In this document: one piece after another, positions 1,398 to 29,428 of the stretch
Layout: each line of letters begins with the position of its first letter
How positions within the stretch are numbered: the stretch's first letter is position 1
Assembly (NCBI GenBank): GCA_958296135.2
Contig: CATQHZ020000001.1
Span: 3,488,001 to 3,552,000 of the forward strand
Direction: 5' to 3'
Origin: an uncultured Poribacteria bacterium
Lineage (GTDB): Bacteria > Poribacteria > WGA-4E > WGA-3G
DNA length: 64,000 nucleotides
Made by a program: the position numbers and the translations under genes
Notes under the pieces: generated by a model
The model's input: only the letters and a program-made list of their open reading frames with translations
Databases searched by the model: none
What the model was told of the DNA's origin: nothing

Positions 1398-1590
1398 CGT
1401 AGGGCGAGGGAAAACCCGGCGACGCGAATCGCCGAGGGTGTCCCTCGCCATCGTGAAACATCGCGGGGGACAGTGGACATCTCTGCAGCGAGGCGGCAGA
1501 GAGGACAACGTTAAAGGTGGCGTGTTTACGCGGGGCGACACACGCACGTTTGCTGTAGGCGTGACCGTAACGGCCCCCGCGCTACGGCAG
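1398..1590. repeat. Inverted pair of GTAG-type REP elements, both with extra sequence in the loop
   Basis: GTAG-GGCGAGGG...CCCTCGCC followed by CGCGGGGGACA...GGCCCCCGCG-CTAC. Confidence 0.8.
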
Positions 1591-1704
1591 GCGCACGCTG
1601 GCGGCGAGGCCGTCACGGTCATGCCTACAGAAAACTACCTTATCCCACCCCGTTCTAAGCGGGTTATCTGAACTCAAACAGGCCAAAATCAAAGGAGCAT
1701 CAAA

Positions 1705-2532
1705 ATGAAAAACTTAATTTTTCTCATGGCACTCGTCATGATTACCGCCGCCTCTGTCAATGCGCAGTGGCGGAGCAAAACGCACGATGTCTACAACGCG
1801 CTCACAGGCGTAGAAGTCGAAATTGACGGCGACCTGGGCGAATGGGACGGCATCATGGAATCCGTCACCGGCACCGATGGAACCCCATTCTGTGGTGTGG
1901 AATATCAAGGCAATGTCTTCCAAGAACACGACGGCGGCAAGTGGAAAGGTGCCGATGACCACGAGACGTGTTTCATGATAGTCTGGGATGAAAAGGCAGT
2001 TTATCTCGGCCTCATCGTTACCGATGACGAGCATGAACACGCAGCGGATGACGCATGGAACGGCGATGGCGCGCAACTCGCTTTTGAAATGAGTGGCAAC
2101 CGGAAGCCCGGACTGCCCATGTGGCTCTACAACATCGGCTTAGACGATAAAGCCGAGAACATCCTCCCGGGCGCGTTGAACGAAAACCCCGGCGGCGCAG
2201 GTATCGTCCCAGACGATGACATCGTCATCATCCGAGACGAAGCGGAGAAGAAAACCTACTACGAACTTCGGTTCACCGCAGAGGAATTGCAGGTGAAAGG
2301 CAAAAAGTTCAGCGCAGGGTTTGAATTCGGACTCGGCATCTGCGTCAACGATGGCGACAAAGGTGCCGGACAAGACGGCCAGAAGGGATGGAGCGGGTGG
2401 TATACGCACGCCATCGTCTTCGGGAAAAACTCCGAACATACGGGGCTCGTCAAACTCACCGCTGAGAAAGCCGCCGTTGAACTGAGGGACAAACTAACGA
2501 CGACGTGGGCATTGCTAAAATCCGCGCGATAA
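1705..2532 (+). CDS. Secreted CBM9/DOMON-like sugar-binding domain protein with C-terminal KLTTTW tail
   Basis: RBS AAGGAG and a signal peptide. Motifs 'IDGDLGEW', 'WDEKAVYLGLIVTDD', 'WNGDGAQL' and 'GICVNDGD'. Ends AVELRDKLTTTWALLKSAR. Confidence 0.75.
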   Translation: MKNLIFLMALVMITAASVNAQWRSKTHDVYNALTGVEVEIDGDLGEWDGIMESVTGTDGTPFCGVEYQGNVFQEHDGGKWKGADDHETCFMIVWDEKAVYLGLIVTDDEHEHAADDAWNGDGAQLAFEMSGNRKPGLPMWLYNIGLDDKAENILPGALNENPGGAGIVPDDDIVIIRDEAEKKTYYELRFTAEELQVKGKKFSAGFEFGLGICVNDGDKGAGQDGQKGWSGWYTHAIVFGKNSEHTGLVKLTAEKAAVELRDKLTTTWALLKSAR

Positions 2533-2540
2533 AGGAAACC

Positions 2541-2576
2541 CTCTTTAGGTCCTAGCGGACCTAAAGAGACGTTTTT
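2541..2576 (+). terminator. Intrinsic terminator-like hairpin
   Basis: Perfect 12-bp stem CTCTTTAGGTCC-tagc-GGACCTAAAGAG with a T-run, between convergent genes. Confidence 0.65.
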
Positions 2577-2630
2577 CAAGCAAGGCATGGCTGCCATGTG
2601 GCCGCGCCAAAATGCCCCGCCGACTGAAAC

Positions 2631-3662
2631 CTAATGCGCATGATGCGCCGCCTTGTGGTAATGCAACCGCAGCAAATCCACCCCAAAATCATCGGCGATG
2701 TGCCGCCAAACCGAGTGGATATGGTTCGCATCGTTCTGCGTGTTATCGTATTCCACAAAGAAAAACGGGCCGTGGAGACGGTAATAGTGCGGCATCCCGC
2801 GCGCCTCGCCGCCTGCCCACGCAAAATGAATATCGTTGACGCTGCCCTCGCGCAGCTTGCGATGCTCAATCGCCGCTACCTCGTCAGGGAGCCGGTCGAT
2901 GTATTCATGCACCAACTTCATCAAAACCTCGCGCTGATGCGTCTCCATGGAGTCAGCGGGCAGTCCCTCCACCGCGTCAAACGCAACTTTCGGCACATCG
3001 CGCGTCAAAATATCGGACGGTGCATCCGCATCGATGATGCTCCGCTCCTTCTGCTCAGTACTGAGCGTGCCGAGAAGTTCCCGCGCGATATCTTCTTCCG
3101 CCGCAAGCACCCGCAATCCCTTCTTGTCGCCGGACGGTACCTCCGCCGGGTTAGAACCGAAGAAGAACGGGTTCGGCGAAATCAACTCGCGATTGACGAC
3201 AGTGAAATTGAGAGAAACGTGATGCCCCTCGGCGCGCCAACCCCAAGCACCATTGCCGCCCGGGTCACCGAACACCGTAAAAAAGTAGGATGCCGGATCG
3301 CGAGCAAGTCTCGCCTGCCCAGCCGCTCGCTCAATCTCCCCAAGCGTCGTCTCCAAATTGATAATCGCGCGTGCTTTCTTATACCCACCCGCGCTGAGCC
3401 CGCTCTCCAGCAGCGCAAAGGCGGCTCCCTGCTGTGTCGCGTTCAATTCCTTGAGCGAGACACCCTTCCGTTCCCACATCTCAACCGGAATATAGTGCCA
3501 CCGGAACCGTTCGTTCCCATCAAACGAAAGAGCCGCCTGTTCGCGGAGAGGCGGTGTCAGCGTATCCAAAAAATGCATCGCCGCTTGTGCCATCTGCGCG
3601 GCGGTTTCCGATGCCGGAATCACCAGCGGTGCGGGCATCGCATGCGTATGTGTCTGTGCCAT
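2631..3662 (-). CDS. DUF3500 family protein
   Basis: Motifs 'WGWRAEGHHVSLNFT', 'PFFFGSNP', 'FAWAG...HYYRLHGP' and 'EYDNTQNDANHIHSVWR'. Confidence 0.85.
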   Translation of the reverse strand: MAQTHTHAMPAPLVIPASETAAQMAQAAMHFLDTLTPPLREQAALSFDGNERFRWHYIPVEMWERKGVSLKELNATQQGAAFALLESGLSAGGYKKARAIINLETTLGEIERAAGQARLARDPASYFFTVFGDPGGNGAWGWRAEGHHVSLNFTVVNRELISPNPFFFGSNPAEVPSGDKKGLRVLAAEEDIARELLGTLSTEQKERSIIDADAPSDILTRDVPKVAFDAVEGLPADSMETHQREVLMKLVHEYIDRLPDEVAAIEHRKLREGSVNDIHFAWAGGEARGMPHYYRLHGPFFFVEYDNTQNDANHIHSVWRHIADDFGVDLLRLHYHKAAHHAH

Positions 3663-3764
3663 GATGAAAGATCTCCTTTAATAGTATTTTTTATTGTAAA
3701 CGAAAGCCGTTTGCAAATCAAGAAAATTTCTGTCTGAATCAGGATGTAGAGCCAGAATGGCGAA

Positions 3765-4705
3765 AGCGGGCCCTTTTCACCGTAGCCCGGTGGGCCCTTT
3801 TCACCGTAGCGCGAGGGCCTGTCGGCCGCGAGCGGTTCCTAGCACCGTCGCGCGAGGGCCTGTCCCTCGCGATCGCTCGACCGACAAGAAAGGCACCTTT
3901 TCACCGTCGCGCGAGGGCTTGTGCCTCGCGATCCCTCGACCGTGAAGGGGGGGGGCGGTTTTTTCCTTGCGCGGGGCTTCGCGAGGGACAGTGGACATCT
4001 CTGCAGCGAGGCGGCAGAGATGACAACGTTTCGGCGTAACGGCCCTCGCGCTACGGTTCAAAGGGGCCGTCGGTGAAAAGGGCCCCTTAGTCCGTAGGGC
4101 GCGGTCCTGTGCCGCGCCATGCATCGGTCTATCAAAAGAGATCGCGAGGCACAAGACCTCGCGCTACGGTGAAAGGGGCCGTTTTGTGTGGTCGAGAGAT
4201 CGCGAGGGACAGGCCCTCGCGCTACGGTAGAAGGGGCCCCTCAGTCCGTAGGGCGAGGTCCTGTGCCGCGCCATGCTTCGGTCTATCAAAAGAGATCGCG
4301 AGGGACAGGCCCTCGCGCTACGGTAGAAGGGGCCCCTGAGTCCGTAGGGCGAGGGCCTGTGCCGCGCCATGCATCGGTCAATCAAGGGGCTTCGCGAGGC
4401 ACAGGTTGTCCAGCGCGCGATGGTGAAAAAGCCCCTTAGTCCGTAGGGCGCGGTCCTGTGCCGCGCCATGCATCGGTCAATCAAGGGGCTTCGCGAGGGA
4501 CAGGCCCTCGCGCGACGGTGAAAGGGGCCGGTTTGTGTGGGTCGAGAGATCGCGAGGGACAGGCCCTCGCGCTACGGTTCAAAGGGGCCGTCGGTGAAAA
4601 GGGCCCCTTAGTCCGTAGGGCGCGGTCCTGTGCCGCGCCATGCCGCGGTCTATCAAGGGGCTTCGCGAGGCACAAGACCTCGCGCTACGATGAAAGGGGC
4701 CCAAC
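3765..4705. repeat. Large REP/BIME-like array (more than 12 GTAG REP units in alternating orientation)
   Basis: CGTAGGGCG(A/C)GGTCCTGTGCCGCGCC and CGCGAGGGACAGGCCCTCGCGCTACG recur with conserved linkers (ATCAAAAGAGAT, AAAGGGGCC). Confidence 0.9.
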
Positions 4706-4724
4706 GGGAAAACAGATTTTTAAT

Positions 4725-4753
4725 TGGACAAAAACGCGAAAATAGGGTACTAT
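4725..4753 (+). promoter_or_regulatory. Putative sigma70 promoter
   Basis: TGGACA-17 nt-TACTAT upstream of RBS AAGGAG and the ATG at 4812. Confidence 0.5.
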
Positions 4754-4811
4754 ATAGATAATGTTTTATGTCGCTCTCATTTTCACTCCGAAACAATAAG
4801 GAGAAAAACTC

Positions 4812-7800
4812 ATGAAATATCTATCAACTCTCACCCTAGCGGCACCCATTGGCCGCTTGAAGACTGCTGTCACCGCGTTGCTGCCAAAGCTGTGCGCGTT
4901 TGCGCGTTGCGGTGCTGATGCCACCCGATTTACCCCCCCCCTTGCTCTACGTCCGTTAACCTATGAGCCGCACGGCGGCACGGACACGCCACGCTTACCG
5001 CGAAACCGACACGTTTCCACGGGGAGCCTGCTGCTTTGGTTCGCACTGCTCACATTGTTTGCACTCCCGATGGAGACAGCGGCGCAATCCTGGTCCTTCA
5101 AAATCAATTGGATCCGGGTCTATAAAAATCCGAAGACTACGCCTTACGCCACGCTGCTAGCAGAAAAGAAGGTGCTCGGTAGATCGCGGTTGGGAAAGCT
5201 TATGAGTGGCACCAGAGTCAATTCTTTCCCGTTCCCTCATGTTATCAATCCGGGTGACGGTTTTGCAGGAAAGAACGCGCCGCTTCTTCCTTCTTTGCAT
5301 CGGGTGAGTGTGCCTAGTAATGCGGATGTGCTTAGCGATAATGTGCAGGACCCGGATGCCCTTTTCTGGGTGGATTTCGATCCGTATGAGGGCTCCCTAT
5401 TTGATACCGGTGCCAACAGTGGGCTTGTCACCGCCACGGAAAACACCGTGGTGCGCCCTGGGGATCTAGTCGCGATTGCGGTGAACATCGAGACATCGGA
5501 TGGGGGTGGTAGCGTCTTCGCAGACATGGTACTCATGAAGGGCAAGCCGGAAGCGATGCGCCTCAACCCCAACTATATGCTGGATCACTATCTGCAGCGG
5601 GTTGGTGTGGATGCTGAAACTCTGGCGGATTTCACTGCACCTAATCGCCAGAATCCTGTACTCAGCGGCCATACCCACCCTGAGGTCTATAATGCCTACC
5701 TCTGGGGCCTCAGCATCTCCGGAAACCTTCGGGATACTCGCCAGCATACGCTCGTCTACCAGTTTCGGGTGGAAGCGAAGCATGTCGCGCTGAATGCAGA
5801 AGGTGCTTGGATGAAAGGCGGACCCGAGAACGTGAATCCGTTTAATGTCCCCTGGACTGGTAATGATACTTTTGGAGTGTTCACCTCCGCCGCGCTATTC
5901 AACAGCCGCTGCAACACCCAAGCCCCGGATATTGAGGATGAACCCATCAATGATCCTTGCCGGCCCACGTTTGACACCACCGATGCCGGGAAGGGGGGCC
6001 CTGTCTATTATCCGCGGATAGGTGACTACGAGGCGATAACGGAGATACTTGATGTCCCCACGGAGACCCAGACGGGGCCGTTTACCGTGACGCTGCGCTT
6101 CTATGAGGACTACGGTGACTACGGGCGCGTGTATGTGCGCCATGAGAGGAGTGATGCCTTTTTGGCGGCGTTTCAAACCAAACTGGCAGCCGGCGTGCAG
6201 CAAGGCACGGTGACTGATATTGAGCGACTGAGCGGGCAGTTCTCCGCTGATGGCGAGCTGCAGGAGTATACCCGCTACAAAGTCACCCTGACGCCGGGCT
6301 TAGCGCGCCGCGAGATGACAATAGAGGTGCCTGCTGACACGGTGTTTGACACTGGCGGCCGGGGCAATCAGGCCTCACGCCGCGTCACGGTGCCGGTAGA
6401 TACGGTGTTGCCGGCGTTGGTAGTGGTCCAGCCGCGGATAGCACCGGCGGCGGGCGTGTCTAGCCGCGTGGTCCAGCCGCGGATAGTTGCACCGGCGGCG
6501 GCGGGCGTGTATACCCGCGGGGACAAGATCACCGTTGAGGTGCCGTTTGCGACGGATGGGCTGACGTATGAAGGCGAGCATCCGCCGTATGTGAGGTTAT
6601 ATCTGGGCGAGCGGGTGCCGGCGAATGCGCGGGATGCCGTATGGCAGCGAGGCGAAGAGCGCTCGGGTTCCACGATTGTGCCGTTCGTGTATGTGGTGCA
6701 AGAGACAGATCCCTTTGCGTCTTCGGTGCATGCTGATGTGAGTCGGTTAGCGATTCCTCTAGGAACGCTGTTAGTTGTTCGTGATGCGGGTCGCGCGCGG
6801 CGGGGCGAAGACCGGCTGCCGGTAGGTGCGGGTGTTGTTGCGCCGCCGCTGTCCGATGCTGCAGGGGATGCTGCGTTTTTACTGACAGATGCGTTGGGTG
6901 GTGCGCCGCTGTCTGTGACGGCTGAGTATCCGGTTTGGCCGGTTTTTCCACCTGTCGTGGAGGAGACGGCACCGAAGTCAGCTGCGTCGGATGTGCCTCG
7001 CAGTCCGCTGGTTTTCAACGAGTTCGGCAATGGCAGTGGTGCTGCAAATGACTGGTTGGAGCTGCGGAATGTCACGGGTTCGGCGGTATCCCTAAAAGAC
7101 TATGAGCTCTCAATTGTGACCGATGGGCAAAAGGCAGACACGTCGCTCCTCGTTTTCGCGGATGTGAGTGTGCCTGCAAACGGCCTGCTGTTGGTAACAA
7201 ACAGCGCGCCGGAGAAAACGCCGCTGGCAGGCGGTGAGAAGAGAGGGTTGTCGCATGCGTTTTTGGCGGATGCGGGGCTCTCGCTGCCCGATGATGGGAA
7301 GTTCCTGTTGATTCTGCGGAATGCGAAGGAGAAACTCGGCATGAACGAGGCATTTGTCGATGTCGCCGGTGGCGGTGGCAGTGACACGGATGCGTTCGTT
7401 CGCGAGCAGACGGGCGACTACGATACGCACGTCTGGCCCCTGCAAGTCCTACAAGCTCCCGGTGGTGATACGGAAGACGCGCTGAGTTCGGGCAAGGTCT
7501 GGTTGCGCGCAAAAGCGGATATCGTTGGGTATCATAAAGATGCATGGGCAGCGGCGGCGTTTACCGGTATCGGCTATGATAGGAAGGTGACGAAGTCTGC
7601 TGCCACCGCAGGCACGCCGGGGTATCCGAATGGTGCCATGAAAACGGCAGCAGCTACGCCGAAGGGCAGTATCACTATCAGCGAAGTGATGTTTGATTCG
7701 GGTGGTGGCACGCTGCCGCAGTGGATAGAACTCTATAATGCCTCGAAAACGGAGGCACTGAATCTGAACCGGTGGCAGCTGGAGTTCCAGAACGTCGATT

Positions 7801-8657
7801 CGGAAGATTTGGTAGGCAGACCTATTGTGGCGTTGACGTTGCAGGAGAAGGTGATTCAGCCGAATCAGACGCTGCTGCTCGTCGCGGGTGCTGCGCGTGC
7901 CTCGTCGGCGGATGTTTTCCCGGCCGATAGGGTTTACAACCTGTTGGCACTGCATCAGAGGAACCTGCGCATCAAAACAGCGCGGGATACGTTCCTGAGC
8001 GCGGAAGGCTTCTACCTGAAGTTGACAGACAGCAACGGTAACCTCGTAGATGAAGTTGGCAACACCGATGGCAATCGTCGGACGAAGGATGCGCCGGCGT
8101 GGGCGTTACCGGTGAGCGTTGAGGCAGGCGTTCGGAGTTCGCTCATCCGCCGTTACAAGGATAACGTGGCGCGAGATGGGAAGGAGAAGGCCAGCTGGGT
8201 CTTGTCTGCGAACGTCCGGCAGGTTGCCACGGGCGAACTCCATTATGGGCATGCTGACGATATCGGCACGCCGGGGTATCGGAAAGGCGGTGCCTTGCCG
8301 GTGGAGTTATCAAGTTTCACCGTGGCGCGCACGGAGGCAGGTGCGGTTGTCGTGACATGGACGACTGAGTCTGAGGTGGATAACGCCGGGTTTAATCTGC
8401 GTCGGAGTGAGCGGCGCGATAGTGGATTTACGCTCTTGAATGCTGCGCTGATTGCGGGTGCCGGCACGACGGGTGAACGGCAAACGTATACGTTTACGGA
8501 TACGTCTGCGAAGCCGGGTGTTGCGTATTACTATCAGATTGAGGAGGTCGCGTTTGATGGCCGGCCGGAGACGTTAGTGACGCGTCGGTTGCGGGGCCCT
8601 GTGTCTGCGGCGCATCGGCAGTTGACGACGTTTGGTGCTGTGAAGCAGCAGAAATAA
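4812..8657 (+). CDS. Large secreted/surface protein with an Ig-like domain, two lamin-tail domains and a C-terminal LPVELSSF beta-sandwich
   Basis: 'LVFNEFG...DWLELRN' and 'ITISEVMFD...QWIELYN...GTPGY' (lamin-tail domains). Also 'LPVELSSF...WTTESEVDNAGFNLRRS...YTFTD'. Confidence 0.8.
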   Translation: MKYLSTLTLAAPIGRLKTAVTALLPKLCAFARCGADATRFTPPLALRPLTYEPHGGTDTPRLPRNRHVSTGSLLLWFALLTLFALPMETAAQSWSFKINWIRVYKNPKTTPYATLLAEKKVLGRSRLGKLMSGTRVNSFPFPHVINPGDGFAGKNAPLLPSLHRVSVPSNADVLSDNVQDPDALFWVDFDPYEGSLFDTGANSGLVTATENTVVRPGDLVAIAVNIETSDGGGSVFADMVLMKGKPEAMRLNPNYMLDHYLQRVGVDAETLADFTAPNRQNPVLSGHTHPEVYNAYLWGLSISGNLRDTRQHTLVYQFRVEAKHVALNAEGAWMKGGPENVNPFNVPWTGNDTFGVFTSAALFNSRCNTQAPDIEDEPINDPCRPTFDTTDAGKGGPVYYPRIGDYEAITEILDVPTETQTGPFTVTLRFYEDYGDYGRVYVRHERSDAFLAAFQTKLAAGVQQGTVTDIERLSGQFSADGELQEYTRYKVTLTPGLARREMTIEVPADTVFDTGGRGNQASRRVTVPVDTVLPALVVVQPRIAPAAGVSSRVVQPRIVAPAAAGVYTRGDKITVEVPFATDGLTYEGEHPPYVRLYLGERVPANARDAVWQRGEERSGSTIVPFVYVVQETDPFASSVHADVSRLAIPLGTLLVVRDAGRARRGEDRLPVGAGVVAPPLSDAAGDAAFLLTDALGGAPLSVTAEYPVWPVFPPVVEETAPKSAASDVPRSPLVFNEFGNGSGAANDWLELRNVTGSAVSLKDYELSIVTDGQKADTSLLVFADVSVPANGLLLVTNSAPEKTPLAGGEKRGLSHAFLADAGLSLPDDGKFLLILRNAKEKLGMNEAFVDVAGGGGSDTDAFVREQTGDYDTHVWPLQVLQAPGGDTEDALSSGKVWLRAKADIVGYHKDAWAAAAFTGIGYDRKVTKSAATAGTPGYPNGAMKTAAATPKGSITISEVMFDSGGGTLPQWIELYNASKTEALNLNRWQLEFQNVDSEDLVGRPIVALTLQEKVIQPNQTLLLVAGAARASSADVFPADRVYNLLALHQRNLRIKTARDTFLSAEGFYLKLTDSNGNLVDEVGNTDGNRRTKDAPAWALPVSVEAGVRSSLIRRYKDNVARDGKEKASWVLSANVRQVATGELHYGHADDIGTPGYRKGGALPVELSSFTVARTEAGAVVVTWTTESEVDNAGFNLRRSERRDSGFTLLNAALIAGAGTTGERQTYTFTDTSAKPGVAYYYQIEEVAFDGRPETLVTRRLRGPVSAAHRQLTTFGAVKQQK

Positions 8658-8659
8658 AC

Positions 8660-9215: not shown

Positions 9216-9342
9216 AACACGCAAACGCTTCGCAAACGCGCGCCCCCTCTCCCCAAACCCCCTCTAGCCGCTTGACGAACCCTCCTCCTATAATCCTGGA
9301 AGTCCCGCTCCAAATGCAATAAAATCAGCACATATAAATTTC

Positions 9343-9371
9343 TTGACAATTTATCGCAACTCCTGTAAACT
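9343..9371 (+). promoter_or_regulatory. sigma70 promoter of the ECF sigma gene
   Basis: TTGACA-17 nt-TAAACT. Confidence 0.65.
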
Positions 9372-9436
9372 TATTGGAAGTGCATCCGTTAAAAAAAACG
9401 TTGCTTGCATTTTATTTTTGTTACCCACAGGACGTT

Positions 9437-14963: not shown

Positions 14964-15200
14964 CGTAGGGCGAGGGCCTGGTCCTCATTAGGCAGCATTC
15001 GTCCCTTTCACCGGAGGGCGAGGGAAAACCCGGCGAGCGCGAATCGCCGAGGGGAACCCTCGCCATCTTTCGACCGGGTCGAAAAATACCCGAGGCCCAA
15101 GGGCAGAAAACGTTTGATTTGTCTCCCTTCTGTAGGGAAACCAGCTCGCCTGAGCTTGACCTGTTGGGCCGGGCGGTAGACGGGCCCGAACTACAGAGCG
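14964..15200. repeat. REP cluster
   Basis: GTAGGGCGAGGG units with loop cargo, plus other GTAG/CTAC-flanked palindromes. Confidence 0.65.
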
Positions 15201-15341
15201 GAATCGCGTGTAAGATTTTCGCGCCGAAAGGTCTTTTTCTTGGCAATCCCGAAAAAAAGTGGTATCCTATTAAAGAATACCCAAGTGATGTGCCAATAAG
15301 GCACATAAATAGAAACGTCCACAAATTTAGGAGACAGAAAA

Positions 15342-17299: not shown

Positions 17300-17840
17300 G
17301 CACCGGTCGTCACAGAAACCGTCCTTAGGCACCTCAGCCAAGGACGATTCTCGCATAAGTCGGGAGATCGCGGGGGACAGGCCCCCGCGCTACGGGCAAA
17401 GAAGGCGGTTTTCTTCGCGAGCGCGGGGGACAGTGGACATCTCTGCAGCGAGGCTGCAGAAAGGACAACGTTTCGGCGTAACGGCCCTCGCGCTACGGGC
17501 AAAGAAGGCGGTTTTCTTCGCGAGCGCGAGGGATAGTGGACATCTCTGCAGCGAGGCGGCAGAGAGGACAACGTTTCGGCGTAACGGCCCTCGCGCTACG
17601 GGCAAAGAAGGCGGTTTTCTTCGGAATCGCGGGGGACAGGCCCCCGCGCTACGGCTAAGTCCCGCTCCTGCCACCGTAGGGCGAGGGCCTGTCCCTCGCC
17701 ATGCACCGGTCGTCACAGAAACCGTCCGCGGCTTCTGGGCTGCGGACGTTTTTCGTGTCGGTCGAGAGATCGCGGGGGACAGGCCCCCGCGCTATGATGC
17801 GGCGGTAGGTTTCGCCGGGGACGCAGCACCGCGCTACGCT
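17300..17840. repeat. REP array including two tandem ~103-bp units, each carrying the 50-bp loop insert
   Basis: Units at about 17386-17488 and 17489-17591. Direct repeat GCACCGGTCGTCACAGAAACCGTCC at 17300 and 17703. Confidence 0.85.
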
Positions 17841-20858: not shown

Positions 20859-20874
20859 TACGATTTTTTATAGG

Positions 20875-21230: not shown

Positions 21231-21240
21231 CCTGCCGTGG

Positions 21241-21280: not shown

Positions 21281-21293
21281 CATCTCCAAACCC

Positions 21294-22448
21294 TTAACTG
21301 CCTTCTCGCTTCTGCCGATAAACCTGGCCGCTTTTGACGACAACAATCGGCTCCAGCTTCTGTTTGCCAATGCGGACTTGACCGCGGGCATCCATCAACT
21401 CAAACGCGCCTTCGCGCAGTTCAAAAACCACTGCATCCCCCCACGCGCCAACAGCCAGCGTGCCGACTTGCCCCGGCAGCAATATCGTGTCCGCTGGCAC
21501 ACTTGTCACTTTTTCCAACGCCGCGTCAACCGACATACCGAGGTACAGAAATTTGTTGACGACATTCACCAGGTCATAGACTGGCCCCTCCACGTTGTAG
21601 ACGTGCAAGTCCGAGGAGATTGTCGTCGGTTCAACGCCTTGCGCCATTGCCTTGTCCACGACATCCCAACTGAAAGAGCCCGCGCCGTGCCCAACGTCAA
21701 AGATAACGCCGCGTTCAAGGGCTGCATGCACAGCGTCGCGGACTTTGCCGTTTTCATCCAAGATACCGCAGGGCATATCGTGAAAACAGTGCGTGAGAAT
21801 ATCGCGTTTGCCCATTACCGCTAAGATGTCGTCAATGGATTGACACCATGCGTCTTGCGGATGAACCATCAACGGTAGCCCCGCCGCATCGGCGGCTTCC
21901 CGCGCCCGGTGCAAGGGTAACATGCCGGCTCTCGCGCCGACGATGCTCTCCCGTGTCAAACGCACTTTGACACCCAGGATAATATCGCGATGCGCTTCTA
22001 TCATTCGGCACGCCTTGCCGACATCCGCGTAATCCGGGTTCTCCAATTCGCCGATCTCCTGCGTCAGCATGCCTTGCGAAGAGATGTTCAGTTGCGCGAG
22101 AACCCGCGTGCCGCTCACATCAATGACGTATTTGCGGAAGCCAGGGAACGTATCCGCACCTGCCGAGCCGGCATCAACGACTGTCGTCGCGCCGCGCGCC
22201 AAACAGGTAGAGTCGGGTTCAATCCCAAAATGGCTGACTCCGTAGAAAACATGCACGTGCAAATCGATGAGCCCCGGCGTGACGAGGCATCCGTCTGCGT
22301 CAAGCACCTCACGCGCTTCGGAGGCAGGAATGTCGTCGCTAACCGCGGCGACGTGGCCGCTAGCAAATCCCACATCCTTGCGCGCGTGGATACCCTGCGC
22401 GGCATCGATGAGCATCCCGTTTTTGATGAGCAGTTCATAATTGCGCAT
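21294..22448 (-). CDS. Amidohydrolase/deacetylase, dihydroorotase-like (EF_0837 type)
   Basis: 'PGLIDLHVH', 'TTVVDAGSAG', 'GVKVR', 'THCFH', 'DVGHGAGSF' and 'ISSDLH'. Confidence 0.88.
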   Translation of the reverse strand: MRNYELLIKNGMLIDAAQGIHARKDVGFASGHVAAVSDDIPASEAREVLDADGCLVTPGLIDLHVHVFYGVSHFGIEPDSTCLARGATTVVDAGSAGADTFPGFRKYVIDVSGTRVLAQLNISSQGMLTQEIGELENPDYADVGKACRMIEAHRDIILGVKVRLTRESIVGARAGMLPLHRAREAADAAGLPLMVHPQDAWCQSIDDILAVMGKRDILTHCFHDMPCGILDENGKVRDAVHAALERGVIFDVGHGAGSFSWDVVDKAMAQGVEPTTISSDLHVYNVEGPVYDLVNVVNKFLYLGMSVDAALEKVTSVPADTILLPGQVGTLAVGAWGDAVVFELREGAFELMDARGQVRIGKQKLEPIVVVKSGQVYRQKREGS

Positions 22449-22466
22449 GTTGATTTCACCTTAACC

Positions 22467-23972
22467 TTAATGCGTGCTTCCGCTATGCGTCACCGGACAC
22501 CACCGGGACATGAGCAGATAATCAAACAATGCCGATTCCGCTGCCGGCGTGCCGATGCGTTTCAATGCAAGGACAGAGTTGTCCCGCACATACCGATTGC
22601 CATCGCGCAAGGCATCTGCCAATACGGGGATTGCGTCGCTTGAAGAGGGACCGAGCTGTGCCAACGCCAATGCCGCGTCAAACCGCACCTGCTCATCGTC
22701 ATCGGAGGCAAGCATCTCAGTTAACACTGGCACAGCCTCGGCAGCAGCTGGGCCTATACTTCCGAACGCGTCAACGCTATTGCGACGCACCTCAACGACG
22801 TTGTCCCTCGCGCATTCCATGAGTGCGCGGACAGCTTTGTGCGCCGAGCCACCAATCTGTGCTAGCGCATAGGCTGCCTCAACTCGCACCGTGTCTTCTG
22901 CATGGCCTAACGCTTCGCTCAACGCAGGCACGGCAGGCTCACCTACTGCCCCCAATGCATACGCCGCCATCCGTCGCGTCTGCTCGTTTTCAGCACCGAG
23001 CGTCTCTATCAATTTCGGCACGGCAGGTTCGCCGATGGCACCTAACGCGTAAGCGGCGTTTAAACGCACCGGTTCATAAGTATCATGCAACGCCGAGATG
23101 AGCAGCGGGACTGCCTCTGCAGCCGATTCTTCCAACAATCCTAGTTCGTCCGCTGCGCGCAAACGCACTGCCGGATTCTCATCGCGCAATGCTGCGACGT
23201 GAGCCGCAAGGTTCCCGTTGGCAGTGGCAGAAAATTGCCCATTTTTCTCTCCTGCCATCCAATTCCAAACGTGCCGCCACGTTCCCTCGTGCGTCAACGA
23301 TGCAGCGTCACCGTGCTCATGAAGTTCCACCGTATCCCAACGCGGATTCTTCACGTTCCACTCAGGGCCTGTGGGCTCGTCCATTCGGATGAACTGAAAC
23401 TTCATCATATACCGCGTTTTGTCGGTGCGGTTCGCCATGGCGCGGTGCCACAGATCGAAGTGAATCAGCGTCACCGTGCCTGCCTCACCACTCATCGGCA
23501 ATTCACCCTCGTTATTTTCCGTGGCGCGAGTGTTGTAATACTGCGTGCCGGGCAGAATCGCCGACGGGCCGATTGCCTCTGGCGCATCCTGCGGATAGTA
23601 AAACGCCATCGCCCAGCGCGGACAGTGGTGCCGCACCTTGTGGTAACCCCAATAACTATCCTTGTGAAATCCCTGCCCATCGCTGTGCGGACGGTTCTGA
23701 TGCGGATGCCGATGCGAATGCATGACGTAATTCTCGCCGAGAATGCTCGTCAGTGCACCGCGCACGGCAGGCTCCTCAAAAACCGCTTGCAACTCAGGGA
23801 CGCGCGGCAAAATGTTATTGCCCAAATTCCCCTCTTTGGCAGTCAACTCCTGCGTTTTGCGATAGATAGTCTCGTGAAAACCGCGCGATAACTCTGCCTT
23901 CACCGTAACATAACCGTTGACGATGAAATCGCGCATCTGTGCGTCTGTGAAAAGATGTGAATTGGCCTGCAT
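22467..23972 (-). CDS. Phytanoyl-CoA dioxygenase (PhyH) domain fused to HEAT/PBS-lyase repeats
   Basis: 'FHKD' HxD motif and 'DLWHRA'. Multiple 'VR--AA-ALG-IG' repeats at the C-terminus. Confidence 0.88.
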   Translation of the reverse strand: MQANSHLFTDAQMRDFIVNGYVTVKAELSRGFHETIYRKTQELTAKEGNLGNNILPRVPELQAVFEEPAVRGALTSILGENYVMHSHRHPHQNRPHSDGQGFHKDSYWGYHKVRHHCPRWAMAFYYPQDAPEAIGPSAILPGTQYYNTRATENNEGELPMSGEAGTVTLIHFDLWHRAMANRTDKTRYMMKFQFIRMDEPTGPEWNVKNPRWDTVELHEHGDAASLTHEGTWRHVWNWMAGEKNGQFSATANGNLAAHVAALRDENPAVRLRAADELGLLEESAAEAVPLLISALHDTYEPVRLNAAYALGAIGEPAVPKLIETLGAENEQTRRMAAYALGAVGEPAVPALSEALGHAEDTVRVEAAYALAQIGGSAHKAVRALMECARDNVVEVRRNSVDAFGSIGPAAAEAVPVLTEMLASDDDEQVRFDAALALAQLGPSSSDAIPVLADALRDGNRYVRDNSVLALKRIGTPAAESALFDYLLMSRWCPVTHSGSTH

Positions 23973-24135
23973 GATGGAATCTCCTTTTCTCGAACTCCGC
24001 TCCTATCCATAATCAAAATGGGTGGAATTCAACCATTCACTATTTTACTTGACTTTAACTTAATTGTCATGTATTTTTTTAATATCAGATTTTTCTCTAT
24101 TTTGAACGCACCTTCCGAGGAGAATACGTCAAAAA

Positions 24136-24927
24136 ATGGAAAGCCTAACGCCACTTCAGAAACAGCAATAGCAGGAGCAGGGATACCTCGTTTTGGAAGA
24201 GGTGCTCGCCGCCGAGGAAGTTCAAGCACTCACCGAAACGGTAGATAAACTGGACGCGGAATTCCGACAAGGTGAGAATATCAACGCCGACACGGTTTTT
24301 GACAAACGCAATGTCATGGAAGACAACGATATTTTCGTCGCGCTGATAACTCATCCCATCACCTTCCCAATAGTGCTTGAGCTGCTGGGGCCCTATATCC
24401 AACTGAGCATGTCCGAAGTCATCGTGCGCCCGCCGAACCCGAAGGATAAAGGTTATCTGCACACCGACGGGGGCCAAGCAATGCAAGGCATCCGCGTCAG
24501 TGAGACGAGTTGGCCGCTCCAACTCAAGATTCACTATTTCTTGACAGACCTGGGTAACCCGGACAGCGGAAATTTCACCGTTGTGCCAGGGAGCCACAAT
24601 CGCCCGTTTCCAGAGGAAGGCATCCCAGATGGCCCCTACATCCCCGAGGCGGTGCAATTGTGCGTCAAAGCCGGAGATGCCGCGGTCTTCCCACATGCGT
24701 TATGGCATGGTGTCGTGGGAAATAAATCGGCACAGCCGCGCAAAACGCTCATCTACTGCTATAGTCACCACTGCTTCCGGCCGTTTGACTACGAAAAAGC
24801 ATCGCCAGAACTTTTAGCGCGCTGCACACCGCGCCAACGCCGATTAATCGGAGATATCGGCACCTGGAAACCGGGAGCCTATTTCTATTCACCGGCAGAC
24901 CAGGCGGAGTTAATCTGCGGAGAGTGA
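24136..24927 (+). pseudogene. PhyH family dioxygenase with an in-frame TAG at codon 12
   Basis: Reads MESLTPLQKQQ*QEQGYLVLEEVL. 'LHTD', 'GNFTVVPGSH' and 'LWHG' are intact downstream. Confidence 0.7.
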
Positions 24928-25042
24928 TTTTCAACTGCATCCATCACAGTCGGCAGAGGAGAGCGCGAGGGCCTGTCCCTCGCGGCGCACCAGCTCAGGC
25001 GAACGAGAAAACGAAATGGCCCTGAAACACCCCAAAAAGTTG

Positions 25043-25071
25043 TTGACAAAAAACGGGGCTTATCGTAAAAT
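25043..25071 (+). promoter_or_regulatory. sigma70 promoter
   Basis: TTGACA-17 nt-TAAAAT. Confidence 0.65.
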
Positions 25072-25112
25072 CTATGGAAATTGGCGAGGTGATGGCCAAA
25101 GGATAACTTACA

Positions 25113-27029
25113 TTGATTCAACAACGCACCCCTACCAGCCTTTCCGCGCGAGCCGTGATTATCGGGCTCGTCTGCGCAACAACCGAATGCCTGCTCGCGC
25201 CCTATAACGATTACGTCATCCGCAACATCTTCCTCGCTGGCGGACATTTTCCGGTCGCGCCCTTCTTTGTGCTAACCGTTTTCGTACTCGGTATCAACGT
25301 CGTCTTAAAACAGGTGCACCCGAATTCCGCGCTGTCGCCCGGCGAACTCGTCACGATTTGGTGTATCATGCTCGCACCGGCTGGCATCCCGTCTTCCGGC
25401 ATGATGCGCTACGCCCTCAGCCCGATGGTAGCTTACCAATATCTCGCAACCCCGGAGAATGACTGGGAGGCACTCTTCTCTCATTACATTCCGCAGTGGC
25501 GTATCGTGCAAAATCCGACAGCGGCGCGCTCCTTCTATGAGGGATTGTTCGCCGGTGAATCCGTGCCGTGGGGCGCGTGGATAACCCCTATCCTCATCTG
25601 GAGTGCCTACGTCCTCGTTATCTATTTCGTGATGATCTGCCTCTCGGTGCTTCTCCGCAAGCAGTGGGTGGAATATGAACGCTGCGCTTTTCCACTCGTC
25701 AAACTGCCGGTAGAAATGGCAGCGCAAGGCACCGGCAGACTCGGCCCAGTTTTTAAGAACAGCGCGCTCTGGTTCGGATTCGCGTTCCCAGTATTCCTGC
25801 ACACTATGAACGGACTCCACACGTTCTTCCCCTCCATGCCGCACGTCCCACGCGATTTTTGGCTGAACCCCTACCTCTCCGAAAGACCTTGGAGCGCGCT
25901 CCGCCCATTCCAAATCGTCATCTTCTGGTCGATGGTAGGATTTAGCTACCTGCTGACCTTGGAGGTATCGTTTAGCATCTGGTTCTTCTTCGTCTTTTAC
26001 AAACTCCAATGCCTCACCGGCGCGATACTCGGATTTCAACTCAGTTCAGGACCGGGCGTTCAGTGGACAGGAAAGTCCTTTAGCGCAGCGCAGGAGGCAG
26101 GCGCATGCCTCGCGTTTGTCGCCATCGCGCTGTGGAAAACGCGACCCCACATTAAAAACATGCTCCGATTCCGACCATCCGATGAAGCACTGCCGCACAG
26201 CGTCACCATCATCGGACTCCTCCTCGGCATTTGCGTCCTCGCTTTTTTCAATACTATGATGGGGATGTCACTTGTCTTCGCATTCGGGTTTGTGCTGTTC
26301 CTGCTAGCGATGTATGTCGTGCTGACGTGGCAGGTGATTAACGGCGGCATCCCCTTCATTAATCCATCCTTCTCGCCGCAGAGCTTCTTCCTCACCACAC
26401 TCGGTACCTCAAGAATTCATCCTTCAACGGTAACCTCGCTCATGATGCACCCAGTCTGCCTCACGCTCGATCTACGTGAATTCATGATGCCGAATATCAT
26501 GAACGGGCTGAAAGCGGCGGACGATGCGCGCATCAAACGGCGACAACTGCTCATCGCCATGGCCGCTGCGATGGTTATCGGGCTCGCTGTCTCCTATTAC
26601 TCGGCGATAAAAATCAGTTACGCCCACGGCGCACCCTATACCGGCGGCAGCTGGTTCATGCGGCAGCTAGAAGGGCTCCTCACGAGTCCAAAAACAAGCA
26701 CGAACTGGACTAACACCGGGTTTATCTTTTTAGGAAGCGGTTTTACGCTGTGGCTGATGTGGATGCGCCAGACCTTCGTGTGGTGGCCCCTCCATCCTCT
26801 CGGCTATACGATGCTGAGCTCGTGGGCAACGTTTAAGTTGTGGTTTTCAATCTTTTTAGGGTGGGGATTGAAGTTTACCATCGTCAAATACGGCGGACTG
26901 AAGGCATACCGTCAAGCGCGCCCCGTCTTTCTCGGCTTAGTCATCGGGGAGATGGTGTGCGCCGGGCTCTGGGCAATCATCGGGATGGTTACGGGGATTA
27001 GCACGGGATATCGCATCCTGCCGGATTAA
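25113..27029 (+). CDS. Polytopic membrane protein, DUF6785/DUF6784-like (putative peptide transporter)
   Basis: 'LRKQWVEYER--FPLVKLP', 'WWPLHPLGY' and 'KYGGLKAYRQARPVFLGLVIGE'. Confidence 0.75.
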   Translation: MIQQRTPTSLSARAVIIGLVCATTECLLAPYNDYVIRNIFLAGGHFPVAPFFVLTVFVLGINVVLKQVHPNSALSPGELVTIWCIMLAPAGIPSSGMMRYALSPMVAYQYLATPENDWEALFSHYIPQWRIVQNPTAARSFYEGLFAGESVPWGAWITPILIWSAYVLVIYFVMICLSVLLRKQWVEYERCAFPLVKLPVEMAAQGTGRLGPVFKNSALWFGFAFPVFLHTMNGLHTFFPSMPHVPRDFWLNPYLSERPWSALRPFQIVIFWSMVGFSYLLTLEVSFSIWFFFVFYKLQCLTGAILGFQLSSGPGVQWTGKSFSAAQEAGACLAFVAIALWKTRPHIKNMLRFRPSDEALPHSVTIIGLLLGICVLAFFNTMMGMSLVFAFGFVLFLLAMYVVLTWQVINGGIPFINPSFSPQSFFLTTLGTSRIHPSTVTSLMMHPVCLTLDLREFMMPNIMNGLKAADDARIKRRQLLIAMAAAMVIGLAVSYYSAIKISYAHGAPYTGGSWFMRQLEGLLTSPKTSTNWTNTGFIFLGSGFTLWLMWMRQTFVWWPLHPLGYTMLSSWATFKLWFSIFLGWGLKFTIVKYGGLKAYRQARPVFLGLVIGEMVCAGLWAIIGMVTGISTGYRILPD

Positions 27030-27061
27030 TGCAGCAAACGGACAGCTATAGAAATCCATCC

Positions 27062-27883
27062 TCACGCGGACAGAATGCGCTCCATCCGCTCTTGCACCTG
27101 CCCTTTCATCTCAGGGTGTGTGAAAATGTAGAAATCACCGTTCTGGATGGCGCGATAGACATGTGCCGCCACTTCTGCAGGCGACATTCCTGCCCCCATT
27201 TCGGCGCGGACATCCCGAGAATTGCCTGTCCGTGGAATATGTTGTGGCTGCGGTAACCCCTGGGGACGGTTCCGTTCTGAATCCAGAATACCGGTGCGCA
27301 CCCAGCCGGGGCACAGCACATGCACCTGAATCTTCGCACCTTTTTGTGCCAATTCAGCGGCGAGGGTTTCGGAAAGCACGACTACGCCGTGTTTGCTGAC
27401 TTTATAGATGCCTTCGCCTGCACCGCCGATTAACCCCAAAATCGAGGCGGTGTTAACGATATGACATTCAGTCTCTTGCGCAAGCATGCGCGGAACGAAC
27501 GCGCGGATACCGTGAATTACGCCCCACAGGTTCACGCCCAGCACCCAGTCCCAATCGGCGAGGGAATGCTCCCACACCGGGCGGCTGCAAACGACACCGG
27601 CGTTGTTGCACAGAATATGCACCGCGCCGAAAGCCTCCAATGTTTGCTGTGCAAGGTTTTCGACATCAGCCGCGTTTGAGACATCCGTTCTGACAGCAAT
27701 AACTGAGGCTCCAGCAGACTTGAGAGAAGCCGTCACTGCTGCCAACGGTCCCTCTTCCACATCGGCGAGGACAACTCTCATGCTGTCGGCGGCGAATCGT
27801 TCCGCCATCGCCCGGCCGATGCCACTCGCGGCACCGGTGACGACAGCAACGTTCCCTTTCTTACAAACGGGTGTGTGATTCAT
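27062..27883 (-). CDS. SDR family oxidoreductase
   Basis: TGAASGIG, CNNAGV, YKVSKH. Confidence 0.9.
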   Translation of the reverse strand: MNHTPVCKKGNVAVVTGAASGIGRAMAERFAADSMRVVLADVEEGPLAAVTASLKSAGASVIAVRTDVSNAADVENLAQQTLEAFGAVHILCNNAGVVCSRPVWEHSLADWDWVLGVNLWGVIHGIRAFVPRMLAQETECHIVNTASILGLIGGAGEGIYKVSKHGVVVLSETLAAELAQKGAKIQVHVLCPGWVRTGILDSERNRPQGLPQPQHIPRTGNSRDVRAEMGAGMSPAEVAAHVYRAIQNGDFYIFTHPEMKGQVQERMERILSA

Positions 27884-28450
27884 TTATTCAAAAAATTTGG
27901 CGACTTCACAAGAGAAGCCTTCCACGACATTTTCGCCGGTCAGGGTATCTCCGCGCGTAAGCAGTTTGAAGTCTTCGTTCGACCGGTACACCGTTACCGT
28001 TTTCATGACTGATTCAACAATCCATACCATCTGTGTTCCTGCATCAAGATACACTTGGACCTTTTCCAAAACGTTCCACAGCGCATCTGTGGGAGAAATC
28101 ACTTCAACGGCAAGCTCGGGTGGTGCCGGTGAAGGATGCCTTCCTTCATCAGGCAGCCGGGCAGTGGAAAGAAACGCGACATCCGGTTTGAGGACGCGCT
28201 CACCGACTCGGAAACCGCCTTCAGCGACAACGCTGCCCAATTGATTCTCACGAACGTGCCGCTGCAAATACCAAGAAACGTTGCTACTGATTTTCGCGTG
28301 CTCCCACGATGGAGACGACATCGGCACTAATGCTCCTTTTACGTATTCGTAGCCCTCTAAATCACTCGCAAGAAATTCATCCAACGTCATCGTGATGTGT
28401 GCGGGAGGCGGCACCTCTGGCGCAAAGGGATACAACTCAGGGGAATTCAT
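27884..28450 (-). CDS. Uma2 family (PD-(D/E)xK-like) endonuclease, copy 1
   Basis: 'YEYVKG-LV-M', 'PDVAF', 'PELAVEVISP' and 'YLDAGTQMVWIV'. Confidence 0.9.
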   Translation of the reverse strand: MNSPELYPFAPEVPPPAHITMTLDEFLASDLEGYEYVKGALVPMSSPSWEHAKISSNVSWYLQRHVRENQLGSVVAEGGFRVGERVLKPDVAFLSTARLPDEGRHPSPAPPELAVEVISPTDALWNVLEKVQVYLDAGTQMVWIVESVMKTVTVYRSNEDFKLLTRGDTLTGENVVEGFSCEVAKFFE

Positions 28451-28491
28451 TCGCTCGGCCCTCCTTAGCCTTGCAGGACTGTTTTTTCACC

Positions 28492-28520
28492 ATTATACTC
28501 GAAAGTTCAACGCATGTCAA
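28492..28520 (-). promoter_or_regulatory. Consensus sigma70 promoter of Uma2 copy 1
   Basis: TTGACA-17 nt-TATAAT on the minus strand. Confidence 0.8.
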
Positions 28521-28601
28521 CTGTCTTTTAATGTTTCTCTATCAAGACCGGGGGGCCCTGCTACCGGCGAAAACGAAATCGGCTTGCGGAATGAGACATA
28601 C

Positions 28602-29171
28602 CTATTCAAAAAGTTTGGCAACATCACAAGAAAAGCCTTCCACGACATTTTCTCCGGTGAGCGTATCCCCGTGCATGAGGAGGTTGAAGGGTTCATCGGC
28701 GCGATACACCGTCACGGTTTCTAACACCGGGTCGAGCACCCAAACCATCAACGTGCCAGCCTCAAGATAGGCTCGCACCTTCTCCGAAACGCGCGAGTGC
28801 ACATCTGTAGGGGAGACTACCTCAACCGCCAGATCTGGGGGCACAGGAGACGCTTTCTTTCTGTTTTCAGGCAGCCGCGCTGTTGAAACAAACGCGACAT
28901 CTGGCATCAGCACCCGTTCGCCGACTTGGAAACCCGTGTCTGATGTATAGACGCGCCCAAGTTGATTTTCATGGACATGCCGGTCCAAATACCGAACGAC
29001 GCAGATACCAATCTCACCGTGTTCTAGTGACGTAGGGGGCATTGGCACTAATTCTCCTTTCACGTATTCGTAGCCCTCTAAATCGCTGGCAAGAAATTCA
29101 TCCAACGTCATCGTGACAGATTCAGGAGGCGGCACTTCTTGCGCGAAGGGGTGCAGCTCAGGGGAATTCAT
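28602..29171 (-). CDS. Uma2 family endonuclease, copy 2
   Basis: Same motifs as copy 1 ('PDVAFVS', 'PDLAVEVVSP', 'YLEAG'). Confidence 0.9.
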   Translation of the reverse strand: MNSPELHPFAQEVPPPESVTMTLDEFLASDLEGYEYVKGELVPMPPTSLEHGEIGICVVRYLDRHVHENQLGRVYTSDTGFQVGERVLMPDVAFVSTARLPENRKKASPVPPDLAVEVVSPTDVHSRVSEKVRAYLEAGTLMVWVLDPVLETVTVYRADEPFNLLMHGDTLTGENVVEGFSCDVAKLFE

Positions 29172-29212
29172 TTTCTCCTCCCTCCTTAGCCTTGCAGGAC
29201 TGTTTTTTCACA

Positions 29213-29241
29213 ATTATACCCGAAAGTTCAACGCATGTCAA
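29213..29241 (-). promoter_or_regulatory. Consensus sigma70 promoter of Uma2 copy 2
   Basis: TTGACA-17 nt-TATAAT on the minus strand. Confidence 0.8.
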
Positions 29242-29273
29242 TATTTTTTTCGCTCAAGGCATGGCGAGGAACA

Positions 29274-29428
29274 GTGGACATCTCGGCAGCGAGGCTGCAG
29301 AGAGGACAAAGTTAAAGTCAGGTAGTTTGCTTATGCGAAGCAACAGTCACGTCTATCAAGACAGTCGATCTGCCTTGTCAGATCGACTGTCCTACCGTAA
29401 ACACGTTTTCTGTAGACGTGCCCGTAAC
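29274..29428. mobile_element. Longest (155 bp) copy of the REP-loop-inserted miniature element
   Basis: Ends GTGGACATCT...CGTAAC lie between REP arms. Other copies are at 1473, 3991, 17433 and 17536. Confidence 0.6.

Follow-up and report, generated by a model that had tools for sequence, protein, structure and literature searches.

Repetitive extragenic palindromes (REPs) are among the commonest bacterial repeats. REP-associated tyrosine transposases (RAYTs) cut and join REPs in vitro, and the insertion sequences (ISs) IS1397, ISKpn1, ISPpu10, and IS621 insert specifically into them; to our knowledge, the entry of a REP into new DNA in a cell, that is, how and where it happens, has never been seen. 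Analyzed here is a 64,000-nucleotide stretch (the window) of the genome of an uncultured Poribacteria bacterium, corresponding to positions 3488001 to 3552000 of contig C1 in the 5.19-Mb assembly GCA_958296135.2 (genome G000; completeness, 94.7%), in which a short hairpin-bearing insert (the module) sits in the loop of a GTAG-type host REP (REP-1) and, elsewhere in the genome, also in a second host repeat (Host-2). The module has exact limits and a fixed insertion point, needs a hairpin, lies in one orientation, has been gained or lost repeatedly, and prefers one strand. Positions without a contig name are those of the window.

REPs have a tag, GTAG or GTGG, located 0 to 2 nt 5' of a stem of 7 to 20 bp with a loop of 2 to 5 nt (PMC6006769), and GTGG instead of GTAG was noted for one REP family (PMC3733652). 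Y1 transposases cut and rejoin single-stranded DNA (ssDNA) seamlessly at the lagging-strand template, and the Escherichia coli enzyme TnpA-REP needs GTAG and a hairpin with an irregularity in its stem; this enzyme cuts single strands on either side of the REP and performs strand transfer, which, as its authors propose, creates variants of the bacterial interspersed mosaic elements (BIMEs) (PMC3333891). REPs with long self-pairing loops and REPs located inside other palindromes have been described, and small palindromes are the insertion sites of the GTAG-23 REPs of T. roseum and of the REP dimers of A. variabilis and H. neapolitanus (PMC3733652). Full-size ISs that use REPs as targets are known as well (PMC3733652; ISPpu9).

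The module is similar to the members of the REP/RAYT systems (PMC3333891, PMC3733652, PMC6006769, PMC2817692) in having a tag two bases 5' of a short stem-loop (GTGG, an 11-bp stem, and the 3-nt loop GAG, all within the published ranges), no genes, and hundreds of copies that cluster with other REPs and among which a single-copy RAYT gene is located; the host REP-1 is itself a classical GTAG REP. Unlike those REPs, it occupies one fixed point in another REP's loop, carries a 3' tail of 19 nt whose end is conserved, has an AT-rich basal stem, and does not form inverted doublets, being a single hairpin rather than the two inverted REPs that make up the one long hairpin of a REPIN. The REPs of T. 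roseum, A. variabilis, and H. neapolitanus likewise place a REP-type hairpin inside another palindrome, in T. roseum with hundreds of unoccupied targets, but their hosts are simple target palindromes or long palindromes, whereas here the host is a high-copy GTAG REP and the guest is a different tagged hairpin, with nesting that proceeds to a third level (C1:4557087 and C1:1144603). The IS200/IS605 elements and their gene-less derivatives, the palindrome-associated transposable elements, share with the module the lack of inverted ends and of target duplication, the single orientation 3' of a short fixed motif, which in that family is a tetra- or pentanucleotide, the subterminal hairpin, and the bias to the strand that serves as the lagging-strand template. 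However, that family has a hairpin at each end, the module has just one, and no TnpA-bearing parent of it was found; the ends of the genome's 34 TnpB elements are also unrelated, so the resemblance to an IS200/IS605 right end that had been seen in the original prediction is a weak one. The REP-targeting ISs, such as ISPpu9, are 1 to 1.5 kb long and encode DDE or DEDD transposases, in contrast to the 50-bp module and a genome in which no such gene was found. Within the accessible text of the open literature, there was no nucleotide-level definition of a REP insertion site and no description of a high-copy tagged mini-hairpin that lands in another REP's loop at a fixed nucleotide; the available part of PMC3116915 makes no mention of nested or inserted-into REPs.

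The empty form of REP-1, present in the window, is CGCG(A/G)GGGACAGGCCC(T/C)CGCGCTAC, a 25-bp palindrome (CGCG(A/G)GGG-ACAGG-CCC(T/C)CGCG-CTAC) whose other strand reads as GTAG followed by a GC-rich hairpin, as in a classical REP. Five inserts in such loops had been predicted, and direct reading confirmed all of them, at positions 1473 to 1571 (copy 1; 99 bp), 3991 to 4040, 17433 to 17482, and 17536 to 17585 (copies 2, 3, and 4; 50 bp each), and 29274 to 29428 (copy 5; 155 bp), each between the ..ACA (ATA in copy 4) and GGCCC.. of a REP-1. The predicted ends, GTGGACATCT...CGTAAC, with a 1-nt G ambiguity and no duplication, were read in the same way, and the predicted hairpin, ATCTCTGCAGC-GAG-GC(T/G)GCAGAGAT, is found in all five copies. 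The 22-mer that forms the left end of the module has five matches in the window versus none in 100 shuffles. The host arms do vary among the copies, as had been claimed: four arm pairings were read in the five REPs.

Genome-wide, the left end of the module has 222 matches with at most 3 mismatches, all on contig C1. The respective modules are 50 bp (n = 135), 99 bp (n = 20), 103 bp (n = 7), 148 bp (n = 9), or 197 bp (n = 6) long, with a few others, and the increment between the forms is 49 bp. The catalogue used below consists of the 192 copies in which both ends were found automatically, 19 of them exactly 99 bp long. The 50-bp copies are very uniform. The outer flanks are distinct in 179 of the 192 filled copies, which argues for dispersal and not for segmental duplication. 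In all, this single genome has ∼200 filled and ∼480 permissive empty sites. A long copy enclosing a transposase, which the original prediction suggested looking for, was not among them: all left-end matches that lack a right end or have it >320 bp away were read, and none encloses a transposase gene. These matches proved to be truncated copies, variants missed by the search pattern, self-matches of the hairpin on the reverse strand, and one chance match in a coding region.

The strongest result in favor of a separate element comes from paralogous sites that are filled in one place and empty in another. The filled site C1:4017745 and the empty site C1:4018005 differ in 1 of 90 flank bases and by exactly 50 bp, and so do the filled site C1:4473119 and the empty site C1:4473330. 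The nearest other filled copies have 43 and 27 mismatches of 90 to these two pairs; with no filled donor that has homologous flanks, the REP must have been resident and the module either gained or precisely lost. Further pairs are seen in arm class B (filled C1:4299756 and C1:4299963 versus empty C1:2340990; 7 of 90 flank mismatches) and arm class C (filled C1:218224 and C1:218441 versus empty C1:218046; 8 to 9 of 90). On a tree of 90-nt flanks (647 rows, 164 of them filled), the fill state requires 135 changes versus 146.6 ± 4.1 after shuffling (135 or fewer changes in 3 of 500 shuffles); since most flanks are unrelated, this tree mainly shows that the filled copies are not one duplicated block. 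A comparison of orthologous sites, which covered 500 kb of the congeneric genome G002, included 7 filled sites with both flanks collinear, but the REP arrays between conserved genes are not alignable copy by copy between the two genomes. At C1:2850783, a class C filled REP corresponds to a class C empty REP of G002, in each case the last REP before the same gene end, which weakly supports insertion. These data support the view of the module as a discrete transposase-less unit that has been gained or lost at resident REPs many times.

The insertion point is sharply defined. The module is preceded by ACA in 185 and followed by GG in 188 of the 192 catalogued copies, and the host arms around it pair completely (8 of 8 positions) in 133 copies and with one position unpaired (7 of 8) in 45. 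Four arm classes of REP-1, which differ from each other by compensatory changes, are 20 to 40% filled (CGCGAGGG, 87 of 264; GGCGAGGG, 26 of 108; CGCGGGGG, 17 of 83; TGCGAGGG, 8 of 20). The three main classes with C at position -4 (..GGC before ACA), GGCGCGGC (0 of 118), GGCGAGGC (0 of 44), and CGCGAGGC (0 of 22), have no filled members among a total of 184, which suggests RACA|GG as the target. The hairpin is needed as well: 166 of the 168 copies flanked by GGGACA lie between arms that are complementary at 6 or more of 8 positions, while the octamer GGGACAGG occurs 502 times in the genome outside hairpins. The module integrates only where RACA|GG is located at the tip of a hairpin, be it the REP-1 loop or the apex of Host-2.

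Host-2, a repeat of ∼140 bp that is unrelated to REP-1 and has outer inverted ends ATACCAAAT, carries the module with the same limits, after ..AACA, AACG, or GACG and before GG. An nhmmer search found 78 Host-2 matches on C1, 33 of them full-length; one copy without the module is located in the window (15106 to 15229, minus strand; C1:3503229-3503106). Empty Host-2 copies exist beside those with the module or with diverged versions of it, in which the stems are CTGCAGG/CCTGCAG or CTGCGGG/CCCGCAG and the loops are GAAA or AAAA; some copies hold a further hairpin inside the loop. Host-2 was not found outside this genome by a 35-mer search, and no Rfam family matched positions 1 to 30000 of the window or any of ten Host-2 loci. 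The left part of Host-2 is itself a hairpin with a GTAG tag (GTAG-TTCGGGCTC..GAGCCCGAA), the apex of which varies greatly. The several arm classes, Host-2, the paralogous filled and empty sites, and the absence of the module from congeneric genomes (see below) bear out the original prediction of a nonautonomous unit that targets REP loops and speak against the descent of all its copies from one ancestral filled REP, the outcome that was named there as fatal to the idea.

In its 50-bp form, the module comprises GTGG-AC, the stem ATCTCTGCAGC, the loop GAG, the stem GC(T/G)GCAGAGAT, and the tail GACAA(A/C)GTTTCGGCGT(A/G)AC, that is, a GTGG tag, two bases, an 11- to 12-bp stem, a 3-nt loop, and 19 nt ending in CGT(A/G)AC, with a single hairpin that leaves 6 nt on its left and 19 nt on its right. 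The succession of GTGG, AC, and the stem is seen in all five window copies and in 184 genome copies; 66 of the latter have the commonest fully paired form of the stem and 56 a form with one A.G mismatch. Among these 184 copies, C-G is the usual state of stem pair 9 (174 copies; A-T in 5) and of pair 17 (156 copies; G-C in 7), and pair 15 appears as A-T (113 copies), as an A.G mismatch (62 copies), or as G-C (2 copies). The exchanges of one complementary pair for another are compensatory, and the hairpin is conserved. By analogy, the A.G mismatch in about a third of the modules recalls the stem irregularity required by TnpA-REP. When the filled REP is folded as ssDNA, the module hairpin sits in a junction that the host stem encloses (z = -4.05 for one strand and -3.56 for the other). 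In approximately 6 of the 184 modules (e.g., C1:136684, C1:3770942, and C1:3462839), the loop is inverted (CTC for GAG) between flanks that keep their orientation. Three biallelic sites in the 130 short modules (23 G/T, 37 A/C, and 48 A/G) are each near 50:50 and in complete linkage equilibrium within the 50 bp, and their alleles also occur in the long forms and in Host-2 copies.

The long forms retain the first 40 nt, followed by one to five tandem 49-bp units, each with its own GTAG and hairpin, and end in ..CCGTRAC. Of 108 such 49-bp units in the genome, 85 are found inside catalogued modules, all on the module strand. This second part is also found alone at the ACA| point of REP-1 (C1:2666566 and C1:3404567), so the 3' end and the landing point are common to two or more hairpin units, and the longer forms would arise where the second, GTAG-tagged unit with the same 3' end comes to sit in tandem behind the first 40 nt. 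Third-level nesting, with another palindromic GTAG unit in the 3' arm of the module hairpin, is seen at C1:4557087, C1:1144603, and C1:2785648, and one 338-bp module contains several nested units.

Filled sites are also unevenly distributed between the strands, with the strand assigned from the sign of GC skew in 200-kb windows and the G-rich strand being the one with the sequence of the lagging-strand template. The GTGG strand is on the G-rich strand in 112 of 147 modules versus 253 of 429 empty REPs. In a test restricted to the permissive REPs (GGGACAGGCCC) with an absolute skew above 0.02, the filled ones comprise 90 co-oriented and 30 anti-oriented copies and the empty ones 198 and 161, respectively, so that 31% of the permissive REPs whose ACAGG strand is G-rich are filled versus 16% of those in the opposite orientation (p = 1e-4, an approximate figure for the reasons given below). 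With clusters collapsed, the fractions on the G-rich strand are 74% and 58%. The Y1 transposases of IS608 and ISDra2 act at the lagging-strand template (PMC3333891, PMC6006769).

The module is restricted to this genome among those searched. Empty REP-1 (at most 3 mismatches) is present in 800 copies here and in 1,128 and 4,399 copies in two genomes of the same genus, G001 and G002, respectively, with almost none in the rest of the 30 relatives. The left end of the module (at most 2 mismatches), with 208 copies here, has none in G001 and G002, and its single match among the 30 relatives, in G008, is a lone 22-mer within a reading frame that can be ascribed to chance. The exact left end was found in none of 185,579 species genomes and nowhere in the metagenome collection, and a degenerate pattern of the module hairpin had no matches either in that collection or in 172 other genomes of the class. 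The G002 assembly consists of 2 contigs and is 94% complete.

The genome encodes two Y1_Tnp proteins, both of them RAYT-like, and no canonical IS200/IS605 TnpA. The first, of 181 amino acids (C1:4791065-4791610), matches the Pfam domain Y1_Tnp with 29.8 bits (cutoff, 23). Among the NCBIfam families, REP_Tyr_transpos (REP-associated tyrosine transposase) fits it best, with a score of 57.3 bits that falls short of the cutoff of 80. Its translation contains HFH and YIENNP, which we take to be the HUH motif and the catalytic Tyr motif, respectively; with the Y1_Tnp match, these motifs, the single copy, and the flanking REPs, it has the sequence features of a predicted RAYT. It has no PDB sequence match at an E value of 0.01, and its relatives in public genomes are at most 32% identical over most of the protein (up to 51% in shorter partial matches). 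The gene lies inside a REP-1 cluster, with three filled REPs and one type-2 REP (described below) upstream and inverted REPs and one filled REP downstream; the four filled REPs within 1.3 kb of it have their modules inside REP-1 hosts, and all these modules are on the coding strand. No ortholog of it was found in G001 or G002, despite their 1,128 and 4,399 REP-1 copies; this REP-1-flanked RAYT was found in this genome only. The second protein, of 265 amino acids (locus L007; C1:3732978-3736307), is flanked by a different REP, GTAGGCGGGACATCCTTGTCCCG, and has an N-terminal part that is a read-through of its flanking repeats; G002 has only its ortholog, flanked by a different REP, and one broken Y1 gene. 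We infer that the 181-residue RAYT, supplied in trans, is the best candidate enzyme for the module, on which it may act in addition to REP-1. An HUH enzyme acting in trans, as was originally predicted, is plausible, and two RAYT-like genes are present. The 34 TnpB (Cas12f1-like_TNB) genes belong to two IS families of ∼1,602 and ∼1,472 bp with 84 to 97% identity (e.g., C1:1930892-1932493 and C1:3815390-3816861); they were rejected as a source of the module, having unrelated ends and no member adjacent to it.

On balance, the module is probably a small gene-less REP-like mobile element of the Y1/HUH single-strand type that is nonautonomous and moved in trans. In such a mechanism, a Y1/HUH enzyme with RAYT or IS200/IS605 chemistry would recognize the tag and the hairpin and cut at both limits of the module, ACA|G and RAC|G, in each case on the 5' side of a G. 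The ends would then be joined and the single strand transferred into the loop of a further hairpin, either extruded or in replication. There it would become seamlessly integrated between RACA and GG, always in the same orientation and with no duplication, entering preferentially a REP strand that is exposed as the lagging-strand template. More specifically, and quite tentatively, a RAYT-type Y1 enzyme that is still active in the lineage could be pasting the GTGG mini-hairpin as ssDNA into REP loops at RACA|GG. If so, this genome would record REP integration, a step that has long been sought, at nucleotide resolution, with its target motif, hairpin requirement, strand preference, and seamless joints, and repeats would colonize repeats up to three layers deep. 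The hairpin loops of resident repeats serve as landing pads, which would explain the buildup of mosaic, nested palindromes, and the ∼200 filled sites, the paralogous pairs, and a candidate enzyme would make REP integration experimentally approachable.

Several observations weigh against this reading, and some of them are better accommodated by an alternative in which the module is a structural loop variant of REP-1 that originated once (e.g., by an accident of RAYT strand transfer) and spread with the host REP or with a larger BIME-like unit, its arms and loops being shuffled by recombination or gene conversion. The cleavage specificity of TnpA-REP is loose and its strand transfer was proposed to create BIME variants (PMC3333891), and REPs whose internally paired loops reach 27 bp have been described (PMC3733652). 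REP-1 does occur within larger repeated units, and 42 of the 192 filled copies have an empty counterpart with both 20-nt flanks at 4 or fewer mismatches. Among close paralogs, the fill state is mostly inherited (14 filled-filled versus 5 filled-empty pairs), and window copy 3 has arms that do not match. The type-2 loop, in which the ACAG of REP-1 is replaced by (G/A)AACCCTCGGCGATTCGCGATCGCCGG with its own hairpin and which is sometimes extended by GGTTTT, does not represent a clean insertion but is likewise spread over arm classes A, C, and B, so the mixing of arm classes is not unique to the module; depending on the search pattern, C1 has 231 or 244 copies of this loop, with 1 copy in G001 and none in G002. 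The module tag is on the strand opposite to the GTAG strand of the host REP-1, and the basal stem reads ATCT (CATC if the outer C-G pair is counted), short of the at least three G/C among the first four basal bases that the search rule of PMC6006769 demands. Arm class GGCGGGGG/CCCCCGCC has the target yet is filled in 0 of 24 copies. The GC skew changes sign several times and neighboring copies are not independent, which makes the strand result approximate. Strain-level filled/empty polymorphism, excision products, and circle junctions could not be observed in the four sequencing runs found to contain the window, all from one sample, available as contigs, and none listed as RNA; these contigs break at repeats or join to other copies. 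As for the enzyme, distant relatives of the 181-residue RAYT in genomes of the same order are flanked by GC-rich GTAG REPs similar to REP-1 and not by module-like hairpins, suggesting that this protein is primarily the RAYT of REP-1; its link to the module consists of co-occurrence in one genome and adjacency, which by our own estimate (∼156 clusters) would arise by chance in ∼8% of cases, and no test performed here links any enzyme to the module.

A single-origin loop variant is nevertheless unlikely. It has to contend with near-identical paralogous flanks that are both filled and empty with no filled donor of similar flanks, with the same unit and the same limits in the unrelated Host-2, which also has empty copies, with outer flanks that are distinct in nearly all catalogued copies, and with a fill state that is scattered on the flank tree. 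Nor is the insert haplotype linked to the arm class: of the eight haplotypes defined by three common insert polymorphisms, arm class A contains all 8, class C contains 7, and class B contains 5.

Far less probable is a miniature of a REP-targeting double-strand IS (IS110/IS1111 with a bridge RNA, or IS3) whose partner was lost or left unassembled. Such ISs are known, as exemplified by ISPpu9 of the IS110 family, and IS1397 and IS621 also target REPs; moreover, IS110-type elements have no inverted ends or long duplications. However, no gene was found for the IS110-type enzyme that the original prediction offered as one of two options: neither PF01548 (DEDD_Tnp_IS110) nor PF02371 (Transposase_20) had a match in the 94.7% complete genome, whereas control genomes were matched. 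There is also no long copy with the module ends, a 50-bp double-stranded circle would be physically implausible, and the strand bias fits single-strand chemistry. Equally improbable as a full account, although compatible with mobility in trans, is retention of the module for a cellular function (an RNA hairpin, a terminator, or a protein-binding site), with uniformity due to selection and not to recent movement: the hairpin is conserved with few compensatory changes, the GAAA or AAAA tetraloops of the diverged Host-2 copies are typical of RNA, and the 50-bp copies are highly uniform, but no Rfam family was matched, the module is absent from both congeners and the 172 other genomes of the class, and the arrival of identical units in ∼200 loops would be left unexplained.

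Within the window, all the REP-1 copies described in this paragraph are on the plus strand. The filled REP-1 of copy 1 (1462 to 1585; arms CGCGGGGG/CCCCCGCG) has its left arm, CGCGGGGG plus ACA, at 1462 to 1472 and its right arm, GGCCCCCGCG plus CTAC, at 1572 to 1585. The long-form module between them (1473 to 1571) starts with 40 nt that contain the GTGG tag, the hairpin (1479 to 1503), and GACAACGTT, and continues with one GTGG/GTAG-tagged 49-bp unit and ..CCGTAAC. Copy 2 (3980 to 4054; arms CGCGAGGG/CCCTCGCG), whose module hairpin is at 3997 to 4021 and whose ssDNA fold has a z score of -4.05, has a paralogous empty site at C1:20944 with 0 and 2 mismatches in flanks of 20 plus 20 nt. Copies 3 (17422 to 17496; CGCGGGGG on the left and the non-matching CCCTCGCG on the right) and 4 (17525 to 17599; arms CGCGAGGG/CCCTCGCG) belong, at a distance of 103 bp from each other, to an array of four REP units that share the same spacer; the first and last units of this array are empty REP-1 copies (17369 to 17393, CGCGGGGGACAGGCCCCCGCGCTAC, and 17628 to 17652); the inserts of copies 3 and 4 differ at two positions, and their arms differ too. 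Copy 5 (29263 to 29442; arms GGCGAGGA/CCCTCGCC) has a further nested palindromic unit in its 155-bp module; this form recurs at C1:119115, and its nested core has 11 matches in the genome, 5 of them within catalogued modules. Empty REP-1 copies of the class described in the original prediction (CGCGAGGGACAGGCCCTCGCGCTAC) are located at 4201 to 4225 and 4297 to 4321.

A type-2 REP-1 loop is also present in the window, at 1399 to 1449 on the minus strand. Contig C2 (143,886 bp), with a G+C content of 36.8% versus 54.4% for C1, carries no module copies and may be a foreign replicon or contamination. Elsewhere on C1 (∼638640 to 639000; positions 1740 to 2100 of locus L001), tandem arrays of two further short repeats are found between genes for aquaporin-like and Hsp20-like proteins.

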